DNA of 20,000 nucleotides from Psammoneis japonica (Eukaryota), in assembly GCA_008632985.1 (NCBI GenBank), contig QPGO01000299.1, positions 50,082 to 70,081 of the forward strand, in the 5' to 3' direction. Of the stretch, positions 3,066 to 20,000 are shown in pieces. A program made the translations under genes and the position numbers. The notes under the pieces were generated by a model. The model was not told the origin of the DNA, did no database searches, and saw only the letters and a program-made list of their open reading frames with translations. Position 1 is the first letter of the stretch, and each line of letters begins with the position of its first letter.

Positions 3066-4472
3066 TTGCGGCCTCTGATGGGTGACCATTGTGAATGTGT
3101 GGAAGTGCACATGGATGACCCATGGCCTTCCCCATGAAAGATCCTTGGGCCTTCCTTAAAACTCTCATGGAGAAATGCAAGTTCAAGCTCAAAGGCACTG
3201 GACCATTGGAATTTCACCTTGGCTGCAACTTCTCTCGTGACTCTGATGGCACACTGTGCCTTGCTCCTCCCAAGCACATTGAGCACATGGGGTTGAAAAA
3301 TTACAAATGCCTTTGTGCAGAGAAGCCTTGCAATGGTGTGCCATCCCCTTTTAAAAAGGGAAACCACCCCAAGCTTGACACCTCCAAACTGCTGCTCCCT
3401 GATGGCATTCATCAATTTCAGTCCTTGGTTGACTCTCTGCTGTGGGCTGTGTTGCTTGGTTGCATTGTCATCACTGTGGCCATCATGTCTCTCTCTGGCT
3501 TCCACATGCCACCCCATCAAGGCCCCTGGATTGTGCCAAACGTGTCTGCAGATGCTTGTCAAAGATGCAACATGGTGCCCTGTGCATGTGCACACTGAGG
3601 AACCCAACCATTTGGACCTCCCCAAGCCTGTGTGCAACTGGGCTCAAACCATGCATGGTGATGTGGAAGAATTTTTTCCTGAAGATGCACCCAAGCCTCT
3701 TGGCAAGTTTGTCACAATGACCCACTGTGTTGATGTGAACTTGTTCTCCATAGCATGCTCACTTGATGCTCCATCACAGGCATCATTCATTTTCTTGACA
3801 AGTTTCTCGCTGATTGGTTCTCCAAGAAACAAGCCACAGTCAAGACTGCAACTTACAAATCTGAATTAGTTGCCACCAGGATGTGTGTTGAACAGATCAT
3901 TGTTCTGTGCATCACATTGCATTGCCTTGGCATCCAAATCCATGACACATGTTAAATGTTCGGGGACAACAAGTCAGTTGTGGACAGTGCTGCCACTGTC
4001 CCGCACTCCAAGTTACACAAGCGACACATGGCCCTCTTGTTCCATCATGTGCTTGTTGCAATTGCCTCCAGTTTCCTTGAGTTCCACTTTGTGGAAGGTT
4101 TCTGCAACCCTGCTGACATCCTCAGCAAACACTGGGGTTGCTCCCAGGTTTAGAACCTCCTCCATCCTCTCATGTTTTAGAACTTCAATCTGACTTTGAA
4201 TCTGTCTCTGTGGACTCCTCAAGCAAACTGGGGAGTGACAGGATTTGAACAAGATTTTAGTTTGTCTTGCAAAATTGTGTGTGCTCTCAGTTCCACATGT
4301 GATGCATGATGCAGTTTGCTTTTGAGCCACTCAGCTTGCAAGAACAACAACAGCAGTGCCGACAACATGACACACATCTTTCAGCTCCTGCAACAGTGAC
4401 TCATCTGCTGTTTAGACAGAGCAGCAAGGAGTTGTTGTTTTCTTCCACCCATTTTTTCTTCAATTTCTGTTG
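3066..4472 (+). mobile_element. 5'-truncated, decayed Ty1/copia retrotransposon (CoDi-like): RT C-terminal half, RNase H, PPT, 3' LTR
   Basis: DHCECVEVHMDD at 3084-3119 (decayed YVDD), KFKLKGTGPLEFHLGCNF, HCVDVNL, DWFSKKQATV, MFGDNKSVVDS, NPADILSKHWG; several frameshifts and stops. Colinear with the minus-strand copy at 19233-20000. Confidence 0.93.
4236..4472 (+). repeat. 3' LTR of the decayed copia, preceded by PPT GGGGAG (4230-4235)
   Basis: Starts TGACAGGATTTGAACA right after GGGGAG. Aligns with gaps to the reverse complement of 19233-19508 up to CTTCAATTTCTGT, where similarity stops. Confidence 0.8.
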
Positions 4473-7035: not shown

Positions 7036-7127
7036 CAAAAGTGTGGCAGCCCACATTCAAGACAGTGATTGAATGTTCTGAAAATCCACCTCACAACTGG
7101 CTTGTCTTTTGGGAGCTCTGTGTTCAA
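7036..7127 (+). repeat. Diverged dispersed direct repeat, copy 1 (copy 2 at 8105-8191)
   Basis: Shared blocks GTGTGGCAGC, TCAAGACAGT, AATGTTCTGAAAA, AACTGGCyTGTCTTTTGGrAGCTCTGTGTTCAA in both copies. Confidence 0.85.
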
Positions 7128-7322: not shown

Positions 7323-7478
7323 GTTGTGGATGGAAAACTGCATTTTGCTTGGAGAACTGTCAAGATTGCGATCATCATTGTGCTTCGATCACGGCACCTG
7401 TTTGTGGATGGACAACTGCATTTTGCTTGGAGAACTGTCAAGATTGCAATCATCATTGTGCTTTGATCACGGCACCTG
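7323..7478 (+). repeat. Tandem duplication of a 78-bp unit (2 copies)
   Basis: TTGTGGATGGAmAACTGCATTTTGCTTGGAGAACTGTCAAGATTGCrATCATCATTGTGCTTyGATCACGGCACCTG occurs twice with period 78; about 3 internal mismatches, 2 at CpG. Confidence 0.95.
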
Positions 7479-8104: not shown

Positions 8105-8191
8105 CAAACGTGTGGCAGCGGACAATCAAGACAGTCACCAAATGTTCTGAAAACTCAGAACTGGCCTGTCTTTTGGAAGCTCTGTGTTCAA
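8105..8191 (+). repeat. Diverged dispersed direct repeat, copy 2 (copy 1 at 7036-7127)
   Basis: Same blocks as 7036-7127 with a short indel. Confidence 0.85.
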
Positions 8192-11631: not shown

Positions 11632-11789
11632 TTACGGACCAGCGGTGTCGGGACAATCTAACGGATGTCTAGGACAGATGACAATCGTGTGCTAAAGTGA
11701 GCAAAGGAGAGATCATCGGATCTCTCCATGCTGTCTATGCTAGTCTGTCCGACACAAGGGAGTGCACTCCCCATCTTGGATGTCTGTCA
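11632..11789 (-). repeat. 3' LTR (158 bp)
   Basis: Direct repeat of 13945-14113 with an 11-bp indel and about 11 substituted bases. Confidence 0.95.
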
Positions 11790-13944: not shown

Positions 13945-14113
13945 TTTTGGACTAGCGGCATCGGGACAATCTAATGGATGTCTAGGACAGATGATAATCG
14001 TGTGCTAGATGAGAAAGAAAGTGAGCAAAGGAGAGATCATCGGATCTCTCCATGCTGTCTGTGCCAGTCCGTCCGACACAAGGGAGTGCACTCCCCATCT
14101 CGGATGTCTGTCA
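13945..14113 (-). repeat. 5' LTR (169 bp)
   Basis: Begins TGACAGACATCC on the minus strand at 14113; repeat of 11632-11789. Confidence 0.95.
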
Positions 14114-14118
14114 GAGAT

Positions 14119-15704
14119 CCGTTGGGTAAACTGTTGTCATTGTATTTGAATGTTTTGACATTGTCCAACATTGCTTCACCAGATGGCATGTCTGTTGACC
14201 AGTTTAAAATTGATGGCCAGCAGTCTCTTCACAGCAGCTGCTTGACTTTGAATCCCACCGAACAGTCTCGCCCATCTGCTGGGGCCTGGAAAGTGTGGCA
14301 TTGTGCATGTTCCTTTTTCTGCAAAGAGGATTTGTTGAAGTTAAGATGTCCATTGTGGCAGTGGGTGGTGCCGACCACCGAGATGCACATGTCCCACACA
14401 GCACACTATGAGCCTTCCAAAGAGCATCTCTGCATTTGCACAGATTCAGGTTTCCAGATGTTCCCTGTGTTCAATGGAAGCACTGCATCCAACAATGCTT
14501 TGGAGACTGTCCCTGACATCTCTCCTGCAGCTTCTCCAGTGTTGGTGACTGCCACCCACGCCAGTCATTGGCGAATCATTTCCCCTGCCACATTGGTTTC
14601 CCTGCCCTCCGCTCCTCTGGTTCCACAGGATTTCATGGACATGTTGCAATCTCTCCCCAAATGGGAGTCCATCTTGTTGTTTGATGATCTGACATTGCAC
14701 ATGTCCGTGTTTGAGATTGCAGACCTGATCGTCCATCATCATGCCTCTGTGGGCAGTGACGGATCAGTTCTGAATTTTTGGGGTGCATTTGGTTGGACAC
14801 TTGCAGTTGACCGCACTCCACTGGTGGATTGTGCCGGCCTGGTTTTTGGTTTTTGACTGTCATCTTATCAAGCCGAAGCATGCGGAATGTTGTTTTTCCT
14901 CCGTTTCCTGTTCCAGTTGTTGAAATGCTGTTGCAAAATGCTCTCCAAAGGTGTGGACATGTGCTGTGATGACTCCTCACTTGTGCGCAATGTTTCCAAT
15001 TTCCAGGATTGCCCCTGTCTGACCAACAATGAGGCAGTTCAAGGTGCCAGAGACCATCACCAGCAACATCACATTGCCAATGCTCCATCCGCAGTCTGGG
15101 ATGTCTTGCATGAAATTTTTCTTTCCATGCAACAAATTTTTGAAATGTCTCATGACAAGCAGCATGGCAACAAAGTTTCTGTCCACTGGGTCAAGGGACA
15201 CCAAGATGACACGACACCCACAGATTCCTTGACCTCACCAGCTTGGTTGAATGTTAGAGCCAACAGGCTGGCAGGATGGCACCAAGGTCATTGCTCCAGT
15301 GACACCCTTTTAGCCCCTCTCATGCCCCAATTGCAATGCCAACCTGATTGTCACTGGTGCCACAATGTCAGCCACCCCCCGGTTCTGGTTCTTCACATGA
15401 AAGACAAGCATGGCTGGTCTGACAAAATAATCTGTGAGTCAATCAATTGGGCAGCACATGCCAAACCAATGTCTCAAAACATCCGTCGGAAAGTCAGCAC
15501 AGTTAAACTGGTGCAGGAACTTCTCCCCACAAACAAAATTGTCCACCGTTGCAACCCCACTTGCCTTGATTGCTGCACTCACTGTCAAGATCCAATGGAG
15601 GACAGAGACCACATTCTACATTGTCTGCACAATGAAGCATGGTGCCAAAAATTTCTGCAAGGCCTGCCCAAGAAGTGTGATGACATCCACACATCACTGT
15701 CCTT
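14119..15704 (+). pseudogene. LINE ORF2 part 2: post-RT region, RNase H, Zn finger (copy A), truncated near 15704
   Basis: LYLNVLTLSNIASPDG, SDGSV..GAFGW, AEACGML, HWVKGHQDD, EDRDHILHC; in-frame TGA at 14854-14856. Confidence 0.9.
14690..15704 (+). repeat. ~1015-bp direct repeat, copy A (copy B at 16145-17159)
   Basis: Ungapped match at offset 1455; roughly 20 mismatches by eye. Confidence 0.97.
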
Positions 15705-16144: not shown

Positions 16145-17740
16145 TGACATTGCACATGTCCGTGTTTGAGATTGCAGACCTGATCGTCCATCATCATGCC
16201 TCTGTGGGCAGTGACGGATCAGTTCTGAATTTTTGGGGTGCATTTGGTTGGACACTTGCAGTTGACCGCACTCCACTGGTGGATTGTGCCGGCCTGGTTT
16301 TTGGTTTTTGACCATCATCTTATCAAGCCGAAGCATGCGGAATGTTGTTTTTCCTCCTTTTCCTGTTCCAATTGTTGAAATGCTGTTGCAAAATGCTCTC
16401 CAAAGGTGTGGACATGTGCTGTGATGACTCCTCACTTGTGCACAATGTTTCCAATTTCCAGGATTGCCCCTGTCTGACCAACGATGAGGCAGTTCAAGGT
16501 GCCAGAGACCATCACTGGCAACATCACATTGCCAATGCTCCATCCGCAGTCTGGGACGTCTTGCATGAAATTTTTCTTTCCATGCAACAAATTTTTGAAA
16601 TGTCTCATGACAAGCAGCATGGCAACAAAGTTTCTGTCCACTGGGTCAAGGGACACCAAGATGACACGACACCCACAGATTCCTTGACCTCACCAGCTTG
16701 GTTGAATGTTAGAGCCGACAGGCTGGCAGGATGGCACCAAGGTCATTGCTCCAGTGACACCCTTTTAGCCCCTCTCATGCCCCAATTGCAATGCCAACCT
16801 GATTGTCACTGGTGCCACAATGTCAGCCACCCCCCGGTTCTGGTTCTTCACATGAAAGACAAGCATGGCTGGTCTGACAAAGCAATCTGTGAGTCAATCA
16901 ATTGGGCAGCACATGCCAAACCAATGTCTCAAAACATCCGCCGGAAAGTCAGCACAGTTAAACTGGTGCAGGAACTTCTCCCCACAAACAAAATTGTCCA
17001 CCGTTGCAACCCCACTTGCCCCGATTGCTGCACTCACTGTGAAGATCCAATGGAGGACAGAGACCACATTCTACATTGTCTGCACAATGAAGCATGGTGC
17101 CAAAAATTTCTACAAAGCCTGCACAAGAAGTGTGATGACATCCACACATCACAGTCCTTGCAAGATTTGATTCTTTCTGCCATGGAGTCATGGGCCCGGG
17201 GGGAGTTGCTTTGCGCCAAGGATCTTCACTGCAGTGTGGTGTCAGTTTTCCAGTCTCAGGAGCAAATCGGATGGCGTCAACCATCAAATGGATGTTTCTC
17301 CAAAGATTGGAACGTGACTCAAACATCGTATCTTTTAACAAGTTGCACTTGCCAGAACCTTTCTGACCATGAGAAGTGACTGGATTGGGCAGCTGCAATT
17401 GGCGCAATTGTGTTTGGGAGCAGTGGTGGGAGCCATGGGACAACCACAATGATGTAGTCCATGGGCATGATGAAGAAACCAGGCAGTCCTCCCAGCATTG
17501 GGATGCCAAGGCGGAGGTAAAAGCTGTGTGCTTGAAGTCAGATGAGTGCCTGGTGAGAGACAGGGAGCATCTGTTGGATTTGGTTGAAGAGCACTTGACA
17601 CATTCTACACATCGTCTCCACAATTGGTTGGCTGTGGTTAGGCCAATGTTCAAATCAAACATTTGAGAAGCTAAACAGTTTGCTGCCAGAGGTGCGAGAA
17701 CCATTGCAAGTTATTTTGGTGCATCATCACCCTCAGGCTA
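16145..17740 (+). pseudogene. LINE ORF2 part 3: duplicated RNase H and Zn finger (copy B) continuing to the C-terminus
   Basis: ORFs 16342..17379 and 17376..17666, then read-through to the TAG at 17738-17740. Confidence 0.9.
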
Positions 17741-18114: not shown

Positions 18115-19232
18115 ATGACGAATTTTCTGCCGCAGCAGGCTGGCCCCACCGGTGAGTCTCCCCTGAGTCCTCCCCCTGACAAGGACACTGCTCCATCCAC
18201 TCCAACCAGAACTGGATCGAGAAAGCCCAAAAGCTCTACGTTAAAAGAAATTGCCATCCGTTTTGAACTCACCTCTTCCAACGACAATGCATCCATGGTG
18301 TTGGCAATGGGCCATGCTGCGATTCTGAATGCCCTTCAACAGAAAGCTTCCCAAGATCCTTTGATGAACAAGATGACAATTGTGTTTAATTGTGGCCTAA
18401 AAATGCCCGAAATCAATGTTGTTGAGTGGACTTCTGGCTCACTCATTCTCAACACTTCGTTGTGCACCGCATTGGAGGTTCCCGCCGTCGCTCCCCCATG
18501 TTTGTGATTGCTCATCAAATCCATGCATCTCTGTCGATCGCTGATGTCAGGAAGATTCCCTTCATCAACAAAGTGCTAAAAGACCAGGGCATCCACATGT
18601 GCTGCCACAAATGGGACGAGACCATTGTGGACCTCACCTGAGTCACTCTTCCAGTTGACTTGCTCCCAAAGCATCATCCCGTTGATTTGGCTCAAAAACT
18701 GTTGATGGCCCTACTTCCTCAATGCAGCTGCTCAAAACTGCCTTTTTGCCTGATCATCCAGTCAGCTTCATCCCTGAACGACCCTTCTTTATGCACCAAT
18801 TTTTGTGCTGTCGAAACTCCCTGCGACCACACTAAAGAGATGATTTTTGCCTTGTTGGAAGTGTTGAAAGATCACCCCCCAGCACTTGTTCTATCCCATT
18901 GGCATCACTCTCAACCAGACGCCTTTGACAAAGCGGCAAGAAAACAACGAAAAACCAGTGTGCCAAGCTTCACGTCATTCCGTTGCTCTGTCATGTGGAG
19001 GCACTCTCCTTTTATTTGTCTGACACCATTAAAGCAGTTCAAGGAGTGATCAATGTTGTTCCATCCAAGAAGCTCTCTGCCATCCCCAGGTGCAACATTT
19101 TGGTGGATGAGGACTTTTTCCATCAAGCCAAACACTGCATTGCAGAACAAGCACCTTCCGGAATGGTTTCAGGCCATCACCGCAGATGCAGGTGTCCCAG
19201 AAAGCCAACCCAAACCAATGATCCCAGGCATC
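18115..19232 (+). pseudogene. Putative ORF1 of a second LINE (Ambal-like), frameshifted and cut by the copia LTR
   Basis: CACCATG start, Pro/Ser-rich N-terminus (SPPPDK), then IAHQIHASLSIADVRKIPFINKVLKDQGIHMCCHKWDE, AFDKAARKQ, FYLSDTIKAVQGVINVVPS...RCNILVDEDFF across ORFs 18094, 18426, 18660, 18983 and 19053. Pattern recalled from diatom LINE ORF1 proteins. Confidence 0.6.
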
Positions 19233-19508
19233 TGACAGAAATTGAAGGCAAATGGCAAGAATTCAAACAACAACTCCTTGCTGCTGTCTAAATGGCAGAT
19301 GAGTCTCCGCTCAGAGACCGTCACAGGAGCCGAAAGACGTGCAAGTCGGTATAATCGGGCTACTGTCATTGTTCTTGTGAGCCTTGTGGCTCGAAAGCAA
19401 ACTACATCGCGCGCAAACGCGCGGAACTAAAGCACACAAAACTGTGCACGGTGAACTAAACAGCGTGCGACATTTTGCGCGCACCTGAATCCTGTTCAAA
19501 TCCTGTCA
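19233..19508 (-). repeat. 3' LTR (276 bp), TGACAG...CTGTCA
   Basis: Perfect 6-bp terminal inverted repeat, starts right after the PPT, homologous to 4236-4472. Confidence 0.88.
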
Positions 19509-20000
19509 CTCCCCAGTTTGCTTGAGGAGCCACAGAAACAGATTCGACTTCGGATGGAATGAAGTTCCAGAACATGAGGGGGCGGAGAAGGTCCCAGATT
19601 TGGGAGCAACCCCAATGCTTGCTGAGAATGTCAGCAGGATTGCGGGAGCCTTCGATGAAGTGGAACTCAAGGTGACCAGAGGCAATTGCCTCATGCACAC
19701 GGTGGAACGATAGTGCGGTGTGTCGCTTGTGTAACTTGGAGTGCGGGATGGTGGCACTGTCTACAACCGACTTGTTGTCACCGAACATGTAACTGACATT
19801 GCGGATCGGGACGCCAAGGCAGCGCAGGGTGATGCGCAGGTCGACAATCTGCTCGACACAAGTCCTTGCAGCAACAAATTCAGACCCGCAGGTCGCAGTC
19901 TCCACGGTGGCTTGCTTCTTAGAGAACCAATCAGCCGGGAATTTGTTGAGGAAGTGGAGCATTCCCATGACAGAGCGTCCGTTGAGCATGCAATGGCACA
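19456..20000 (-). CDS. Copia Pol C-terminus (RNase H), partial; frame runs into the LTR
   Basis: ORF 19456..19989 with Ty1/copia RNase H motifs; three usually conserved Tyr appear as Cys. Confidence 0.85.
   Translation of the reverse strand, partial: CHCMLNGRSVMGMLHFLNKFPADWFSKKQATVETATCGSEFVAARTCVEQIVDLRITLRCLGVPIRNVSYMFGDNKSVVDSATIPHSKLHKRHTALSFHRVHEAIASGHLEFHFIEGSRNPADILSKHWGCSQIWDLLRPLMFWNFIPSEVESVSVAPQANWGVTGFEQDSGARKMSHAV

Follow-up and report, generated by a model that had tools for sequence, protein, structure and literature searches.

The closest known case to the one described here comes from mutation-accumulation lines of the chlorarachniophyte Bigelowiella natans (B. natans), in which, as set out in the preprint text, two integrated viral regions underwent de novo, episodic A>G/T>C hypermutation confined to the dinucleotide TpA (Mettrop et al., bioRxiv 10.64898/2026.01.13.699255). 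The same text reports that reverse transcriptase and DDE domains are over-represented among the TpA-poor coding sequences of B. natans, and it proposes an ADAT2-like DNA adenine deaminase (bioRxiv 10.64898/2026.01.13.699255). A term search of this text returned no mention of CpG, LTR or retrotransposon, and neither TpA depletion in dinoflagellates nor hypermutation of retrotransposons at TpA was the subject of any paper that our literature search retrieved.

Here we describe a 20-kb stretch of eukaryotic DNA (the window, by which we mean the whole stretch that was analysed), which is laden with repeats and contains a young and an old copy of one retrotransposon lineage. An earlier note on this DNA had proposed that TpA is converted rapidly and early after insertion of an element, and that decay of CpG follows. 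Our analysis supports the view that conversion of TpA to TpG or CpA is a real process, independent of CpG decay. However, the TpA-poor state of the young copy appears to be mainly inherited from its source element, with TpA and CpG being lost at similar rates per site after insertion. We assign this reading a probability of roughly 0.55, and the lack of a fast first phase of TpA loss following the insertion of the young copy forms a part of it.

Depletion of TpA is a property of the window as a whole. Dinucleotide counts over the 20 kb give observed/expected ratios (o/e) of 0.16 for TA, 0.33 for CG, 1.69 for TG and 1.64 for CA, with TpA making up 1.1% of all dinucleotides, and the o/e of TA is 0.42 or lower in all 40 of the 40 segments of 500 bp. 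The two strands are affected alike, with 2092 TG and 2056 CA in the window and 45 of each in 19509-20000. Along the 40 segments TA is anticorrelated with TG/CA (Spearman -0.76); the o/e of CpG and that of TpA both anticorrelate with TpG/CpA, and they are positively correlated with each other (Spearman 0.53, p 4.5e-4, n=40). The single-copy flank of the young copy at 18500-19232, with a depth of about 30 in sequencing run X1, has a TA o/e of 0.14. Pfam, Rfam and tRNA searches detected no recognisable host gene in the 20-kb window: there were 0 Rfam matches and 0 tRNA genes, and the 22 long open reading frames (ORFs) yielded a single Pfam hit, which lay under the cut-off of that database. With no convincing Pfam match among these ORFs, the flank, too, may consist of debris from old repeats.

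Such uniform depletion over 20 kb, extending into the single-copy flank, and its symmetry between the strands would also be expected if the kinetics that we favour had a different cause, namely a genome-wide modification of thymine or adenine at TpA that mispairs at replication, for example 5-hydroxymethyluracil (5-hmU), with neither a deaminase nor a defence system being involved. As related in the text of one study, work of the 1980s found that 5-hmU favours TA and TC contexts, and the base is enriched over the repeats of Breviolum (PMC11071213); given a dinoflagellate host, a cause of this kind is possible on what these sources state (PMC11071213, PMC5890265). On the other hand, the same text describes 5-hmU in Breviolum as being without sequence preference (PMC11071213), and TC/GA is not depleted in the window, with o/e values of 1.04 and 1.06. 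Further, the dinoflagellate spliced-leader motif (21 nt, allowing up to 3 mismatches) has 0 matches in the window, a point of little weight, and the flank might be debris of the kind mentioned above. We regard base modification as an unlikely cause of the depletion.

The retrotransposon can be assigned to the Ty1/copia LTR elements on the homology of its pol region (RT/RNase H). For the young copy, tblastn of three relatives, P0004, P0047 and P0021 (1859-1886 aa), aligns their residues 1701-1877 at 19995-19552 with 73-76% identity. The frame at 19998..19456 of the minus strand, which the earlier note had correctly seen to be open, comprises 180 open codons (P0001) and continues beyond the window end; relatives match P0001 only up to about its residue 145-155, and they end at about its residue 145-150. 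The TG...CA termini preceded by a polypurine tract that typify Ty1/copia LTRs are present, as GGGGAG followed by TGACAG...CTGTCA at 19514..19233, and the element edge is confirmed by a jump in depth and by contigs of run X1, which break away as loose ends at 19230 and 19233. In the old copy, which lacks the part upstream of 3122, residues 1494-1842 of the relatives of 1859-1886 aa align at 3122-4177 with 41-58% identity. Its LTR likewise starts with TGACAGG after GGGGAG, a junction common to both copies (4230-4242 in the old one), and ends in TG where the young LTR has CA. The Pfam search of the young-copy ORF found 0 families; Pfam is silent on the copia ORFs of the window because the RNase H end lacks a model and the RT part of the old copy is decayed.

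The decay of the old copy agrees with its earlier description as CpG-poor, with stops and frameshifts. There are 4 CG and 7 TA in 3700-4230, four in-frame stops (TGA at 3596-3598, TAA at 3953-3955, and TAG at 4151-4153 and 4178-4180) and two frame changes, near 3580-3600 and 3743-3767. The proposed homology of the two copies is also borne out: alignment of 3748-4470 with 19996-19235, reversed, gives 72.9% identity over 774 columns, or 76% over 719 ungapped columns, which corresponds to a divergence of 24-27%. The features of both copies are collected in Table 1.

Table 1. Features of the two retrotransposon copies, in window coordinates (o/e, observed/expected ratio)
Feature	Position	Strand	Remarks
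Old copy pol, RT C-terminal part to RNase H, same lineage	3122..4177	+	CpG o/e 0.10, TpA o/e 0.13; stops, frame changes
Old copy 3' LTR	4236..4472	+	CpG o/e 0.09, TpA o/e 0.10 (computed on 4233-4472)
Young copy pol 3' part, C-terminal RNase H end, Ty1/copia-type by homology	19560..19998	-	Cut by window end; 23 CpG, 5 TpA
Read-through tail of the open frame	19456..19559	-	Runs through polypurine tract into LTR to first stop
Polypurine tract GGGGAG	19509..19514	-	Directly upstream of 3' LTR; read from sequence
Young copy 3' LTR, 276 bp, termini TGACAG...CTGTCA	19233..19508	-	CpG o/e 1.09, TpA o/e 0.40
Cys codon TGC, Tyr in relatives (ATYGSEF)	19888..19890	-	P0001 residue 37; Tyr in 324/384 relatives
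Cys codon TGC, Tyr in relatives (LRYLG)	19819..19821	-	P0001 residue 60; Tyr in 341/388 relatives
Cys codon TGC, Tyr in relatives (HWGYxQ)	19606..19608	-	P0001 residue 131; Tyr in 267/361 relatives
His codon CAT, Arg in 353/385 relatives	19693..19695	-	Family CGT in 97% of depth (19694 T>C); private CpG-type change
Two private TpA>TpG changes in LTR (19453, 19487)	19452..19487	.	Family A (TA) in 96% and 81% of depth

The count of 25 CpG and 5 TpA that the earlier note gave for 19509-20000 is exact (o/e 0.71 and 0.19, respectively). In 5000 mononucleotide shuffles of this segment the mean number of TA was 25.7 (sd 3.9, minimum 12) and that of CG was 35.4 (sd 4.4). Set against the window's own segments of 492 bp, the TA o/e of 0.19 lies at the 65th percentile and the CpG o/e of 0.71 at the 94th. 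The unusual trait of the young copy is its CpG content, not its poverty in TpA, which the window shares.

The three conserved tyrosines said to have become cysteine in the young copy are indeed Tyr in most relatives at each of the three positions (Table 1). When all conserved Tyr columns are taken together, Cys or His occupies 3 of 5 columns of the young copy, 7 of 12 columns of the old one and 8 of 21 columns of a metagenome relative, L008, the corresponding figure for intact relatives being 15 of 500 (pooled over 12 relatives). At 16 of 121 conserved columns the residue of the young copy departs from the consensus of its relatives, with 7-15 differences in eight intact controls of normal TpA content and 10-15 in three TpA-poor relatives. 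Its 16 differences include 5 of TpA type, 2 of CpG type and 0 other transitions, and in the same copies CpG-type and other changes are present beside those of TpA type.

Both outcomes are seen at tyrosine codons, Cys when A>G falls on the sense strand, His when it falls on the opposite one. Given these two outcomes and the equality of TG and CA, the target of the process is DNA, in which either strand is hit, and not the RNA of the element. An exhaustive check of the codons gave 0 sense-to-stop changes of TpA type, the CpG type being capable of producing CGA>TGA. Hence, the frame of the young copy has stayed open because TpA>TpG/CpA never makes a stop from a sense codon, in line with the earlier suggestion of missense change without stops. 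The sequence context of the depletion is pronounced. Expressed as a share of TA+TG+CA, TA has 0 occurrences in ATAT and remains at about 1% in ATAC/GTAT and in GTAC, at 9.1% in CTAA/TTAG and at 11.7% in TTAA; this pattern indicates that the A of TAY, which is the Tyr codon, is the preferred target.

Two other pairs of related segments in the window were compared. An LTR-like pair at 11636/13949 has 9 mismatches, among them 4 of TpA type and 3 of CpG type. The 98% direct repeat 14690-15704/16145-17159 has 20 mismatches, comprising 5 of CpG type, 2 of TpA type, 9 other transitions and 4 transversions; we rejected it as a measure of TpA loss, as background transitions at its approximately 210 TG/CA sites should by themselves yield about 2 TpA gains.

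Sequencing depth provides a view of the family to which the young copy belongs. Within 19214-19519 the summed depth of run X1 climbs from about 30 in the flank to 245,000-820,000 in the LTR, and it amounts to 77,000-155,000 in the internal part; these depths correspond to thousands of copy-equivalents of the element. Runs X2 and X3 contain next to nothing that matches the 20-kb stretch. At 17 places listed from run X1, 52-100% of the family depth differs from the window, in every case by a transition; these are the 17 strongest places, with 34 weaker ones outside the set, and the depth-weighted majority reflects the largest subfamily, beside which minority subfamilies bearing Tyr may exist. 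The listed places include five private CpG losses of the young copy (19415, 19448, 19466, 19476 and 19694, the last being an Arg>His change), two private TpA>TpG losses (19453 and 19487) and one private TpA gain (19711). Three pairs of sites are seen, at 19322/23, 19414/15 and 19673/74; the sites 19639 and 19915 are neither of TpA nor of CpG type.

When 19233-20000 is read by majority rule, it contains about 11 TA and about 47-48 CG, versus 12 and 43 in the window copy, which implies that the source of the young copy was already TpA-poor and CpG-rich. The young copy and the family majority thus keep their CpG (o/e 0.7-1.1) and are nevertheless poor in TpA, and on this ground the process is separate from CpG decay; the earlier note was right to hold that TpA conversion is not simply a by-product of the repair of deaminated 5-methylcytosine (5mC). 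It had also named two outcomes that would speak against its ordering of events, an equally TpA-poor intact family consensus and a proportional loss of TpA and CpG. The first is roughly what the majority counts give, and the second is roughly what is seen for the private changes. The latter amount to 2 of about 14 TpA and 5 of 48 CpG (Fisher p 0.65), small numbers that are compatible with a several-fold difference in rate in either direction. As a rough ratio, the 2 of 14 TpA of the young copy compare with 1-2 changes at about 650 other sites.

The agreement between copies also bears on whether the signature could be an artefact of assembly or base calling at modified bases, with true TA being read as TG or CA. 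Some long-read base callers are disturbed by modified bases. Nonetheless, there are 0 differences between 18500-19257 and an independent contig of run X1, the window is matched at most sites by thousands of contigs of the family, and the same signature recurs in unrelated metagenome contigs and database proteins, all of which makes an artefact exceedingly improbable.

Comparison of the two copies of the window allows the proposed order of events to be examined. Two of the three Tyr>Cys codons, those of LRYLG (LHCLG in the old copy) and HWGYxQ, read TGC in both copies, and the young copy's three Cys codons appear to have been inherited along with its low TpA content. The Cys codons common to the old copy could alternatively represent parallel hits: TAC can go to TGC or CAC, and two matches would arise about 1 time in 4 if the hits were independent. 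At the third codon (ATYGSEF) the old copy keeps the TAC that the young copy has lost, and it also retains TpA at the SYM codon. Among the young copy's 38 aligned CpG, the old copy has TG or CA at 24 and still CG at 3, and its losses amount to 35 of 38 CpG versus 7 of 11 TpA (p 0.04). Amino-acid changes in the shared region number 3 of TpA type in the old copy versus 5 in the young, and 11 versus 2, respectively, of CpG type. Unpolarised TA differences between the copies were ruled out as a record of losses from the young copy, the old copy's TAs being partly gains: on the evidence of outgroup residues, two of them arose by TGG>TAG and two more by transversion.

These observations do not favour rapid TpA loss in each inserted copy with CpG decay next: the tyrosine lost by the young copy persists at ATY in the old one, two of the three cysteines are common to both, the old copy has lost relatively more of its CpG than of its TpA, and the private losses of the young copy are proportional. 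As an account of the history of the lineage, which became TpA-poor first and CpG-poor later, the earlier proposal stands; as kinetics within one inserted copy, it is not supported.

That proposal, read as a model in which each new copy is quickly hit by TpA>TpG/CpA after insertion, as in fungal RIP but with another target, and decays at CpG later, so that the family majority would look TpA-poor only through the independent conversion of nearly every copy, has several points in its favour. In B. natans, according to the preprint text, TpA-only hypermutation proceeds at about 1000 times the background, in episodes, and is confined to integrated foreign DNA (bioRxiv 10.64898/2026.01.13.699255). 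In the present family the dinucleotides at 19322/23 and 19673/74 are split between TG and CA among copies, and at 19352 and 19362 no more than about half of the family depth still has TA. The splits fit a single ancestral TA (or CG) that was hit independently more than once, and recurrent loss in individual copies does occur. The same Tyr columns read Cys in some relatives and His in others (HCHH in P0006, CCHC in P0319 and HYRC in P0277), and the imbalance of 5 TpA-type changes to 0 other transitions at the conserved columns of the young copy points the same way. Yet conversion copy by copy predicts a mixture of TG and CA at each former TA, and no majority alternative exists at the three Cys codons among the places listed. 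The cysteines common to the old copy, the TpA that the latter retains at ATY and SYM, and the proportional private changes of the young copy are further difficulties. Moreover, TpA loss was unfinished early on, given that the TpA o/e of the LTR falls with age, from 0.40 in the young copy to 0.10 in the old. We therefore consider conversion copy by copy to be improbable, and prefer a TpA-poor state that was mainly inherited.

Relatives of the element elsewhere are numerous. There are 1838 database relatives at E<=1e-3, with PF07727 (RVT_2) in most of the 120 listed; they are copia polyproteins of 1850-1900 aa, mostly from marine and other metagenomes. The best identity of a database protein is 76-78%, at which level no member of the same family was found among these proteins, and a scan of viral contigs for relatives found none. 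Most of 79 metagenome loci have a TpA o/e of 0.6-0.85. In the homologous 430-450 bp, intact relatives of normal TpA content contain 15-35 TpA and 5-32 CpG, and three TpA-poor relatives, L008, L056 and L023, contain 4-5 TpA and 17-30 CpG. In L056 and L023 most of the conserved Tyr are still in place and the poverty in TpA is found at silent positions, which is what functional lineages under constant TpA pressure would be expected to show. In L008 and in the database proteins P0006, P0293, P0319 and P0063 the conserved Tyr are lost; the four proteins have 0 Tyr at columns where the median relative has 5, and among the 356 relatives examined there are 9 with no more than one. As the earlier note had anticipated, annotation may call such copies genes: these sequences stand in protein databases as predicted proteins, P0006 being one of 416 aa with a PF07727 hit.

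The confinement of TpA loss mainly to silent sites in L056 and L023 would also suit selection instead of mutation, with TpA (UpA) avoided for RNA stability or codon usage by an element adapted to its host. However, the depletion is equal on both strands and present in non-coding LTRs and flanks, conserved Tyr have been removed, and the loss continues in dead copies; selection is accordingly a highly improbable cause.

In the model that we favour, two separate context-dependent transition processes would have shaped the DNA of the window. The first would be A>G within 5'-TA on either strand, with its strongest effect on an A that precedes a pyrimidine (TAY, with the palindrome RTAY). The lineage of the element would be exposed to it before insertion as well as afterwards, nearly all unconstrained TpA being stripped, and where selection on the protein lapses it would turn Tyr codons (TAY) into Cys or His. 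The second would be the decay of CpG to TpG or CpA, which would show itself in inserted copies alone, as the lineage that transposes retains its CpG. The composition, the direction of the changes, their sharing between copies and their strand symmetry are observed. The chemistry of the first process is most likely enzymatic deamination of adenine at 5'-TA in DNA, as put forward for B. natans, and the CpG decay probably reflects methylation of silenced copies.

A more tentative and in our view doubtful extension is that a genome defence similar to RIP and opposite to it in direction acts on this retrotransposon of thousands of copies: an editor of the adenine deaminase type, acting on 5'-TA in double-stranded DNA with a marked preference for RTAY, might form a first layer that is independent of, and ahead of, cytosine methylation. 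Were this so, 1) Tyr codons would be destroyed first, TAY being the Tyr codon; 2) open but dead ORFs would result, acceptable to gene callers since stops never arise; and 3) the process of viral insertions in one chlorarachniophyte, as far as the preprint text describes it, would reach LTR retrotransposons as well and probably other marine protists, a spread of which L008 and the four Tyr-free proteins would be signs.

A TpA o/e as extreme as 0.16 indicates strong mutation by a process other than 5mC deamination; going by the preprint text, a process of this kind was first measured in 2026 (bioRxiv 10.64898/2026.01.13.699255). If it is general in some marine protists, the CpG content of an element would date its insertion and the TpA content would date the residence of its lineage in the host. 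The process explains long open frames in dead elements, and it carries a warning that Tyr-poor, Cys/His-rich 'proteins' of the databases can be hypermutated transposon copies. The preference for RTAY offers a concrete clue to the enzyme.

Several known systems resemble the process seen here in part. As in the decay of silenced transposons by 5mC deamination, the CpG of the old copy has gone to TG or CA, as read from its sequence alone; unlike that decay, which leaves the loss of TpA unexplained, the present process has left the young copy and the family majority poor in TpA with CpG kept. Fungal RIP, too, is a transition hypermutation that depends on sequence context and disables repeats through missense change. 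It converts CpA to TpA, creating both TpA and stop codons, and was rejected as an explanation, since here TpA is destroyed, not enriched, and no stops can arise, which is the opposite direction. Editing of the ADAR type shares A>G (A-to-I) at an A with a 5' U/T neighbour. Such editing of retroelement RNA, fixed by reverse transcription, would mark the sense strand only; it was rejected in view of the equality of TG and CA, the occurrence of both Cys and His, and the equal effect on non-transcribed flanks.

The similarity to B. natans goes further. In both cases, as far as the preprint text describes the latter, TpA changes to TpG and to CpA on both strands, here with Tyr>Cys/His as a consequence, and the long-term signature is TpA depletion with enrichment of CpA+TpG (here, 0.16 for TA and about 1.65 for TG/CA). 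The window lies beyond the 5% cut-offs given in that text (Rho TpA <=0.43, CpA+TpG >=1.52; bioRxiv 10.64898/2026.01.13.699255), which also describes the process as independent of GC>AT bias. RTAY is far more depleted here than YTAR, a preference absent from the abstract, Results and Discussion text of the preprint. The process in B. natans was measured de novo in viral insertions, with the rest of the genome normal in TpA (6.0% of dinucleotides) according to that text, whereas the 1.1% found here applies to one 20-kb window. Finally, unlike the viral insertions described in the preprint text, the target here is an LTR retrotransposon of thousands of copies, in which CpG decay proceeds alongside the loss of TpA.

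Survival of TpA depends strongly on the flanking bases, as judged from tetranucleotide counts over the whole window. RTAY is nearly missing, with no occurrence of ATAT and with ATAC/GTAT and GTAC at about 1% of TA+TG+CA, whereas the survival of YTAR is about ten times higher (TTAA 11.7% and CTAA/TTAG 9.1% of TA+TG+CA). The effect of context on the survival of CpG, again over the whole window, spans only an approximately two-fold range.

The repeats and open frames of the window are collected in the table. The 2.2-kb segment bracketed by short direct repeats has an observed/expected (o/e) TpA ratio of 0.30, the maximum for the window, and a CpG o/e of 0.62, which is high for the window; together with its bracketing repeats, it may represent another, younger element. 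The open frame within it, P0400, had no match in Pfam. Both copies of the 1015-bp repeat are already poor in both dinucleotides (CpG o/e 0.26–0.29, TpA o/e 0.09), and the spacer that separates them has higher values (0.73 and 0.27, respectively). The two copies may have arisen by tandem duplication, or they may be LTRs that belong to a small non-autonomous element. The open frame P0399 likewise had no match in Pfam; its closest ESM Atlas clusters comprise unnamed eukaryotic proteins, with RVT_1 present in 17% of the members of one cluster, and its being part of another retroelement is only a lead.

Repeats and open frames in the window
Feature	Size	Positions	Strand	Identity	Remarks
Direct repeat	154-165 bp	11636-11789 and 13949-14113		88-94%	Brackets 2.2-kb segment 11790-13948
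Open frame P0400	432 codons	12493-13791	minus		Within segment 11790-13948
Direct repeat	1015 bp	14690-15704 and 16145-17159		98.0%	440 bp separate copies
Tandem duplication	77 bp	7324-7400 and 7402-7478		96%
Dispersed repeat	92 bp	7036-7127 and 8105-8191		83%
Open frame P0399	500 codons	9420-10922	+

In sequencing run X1, where single-copy depth is about 30, depth over 19214-20000 reaches 245,000–820,000 in the LTR of the young copia copy and 77,000–155,000 in its internal part; the family amounts to thousands of copy-equivalents. The approximately 3–8-fold excess of LTR over internal depth suggests that the family includes many solo LTRs.

Among the database relatives, P0002 and P0003, the two best-scoring "longer" ones (on contigs of 113 kb and 2.4 Mb), each contain the RNase H segment twice per gene model, and are probably gene calls spanning tandem or nested copies. 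The metagenome relative L008 (1517-1975 and a 505-codon ORF), P0006, P0293, P0319, P0063 and P0277 are TpA-poor and CpG-normal, with open frames and His or Cys at conserved Tyr positions. These independent public sequences, stored as predicted proteins, all bear the same signature.
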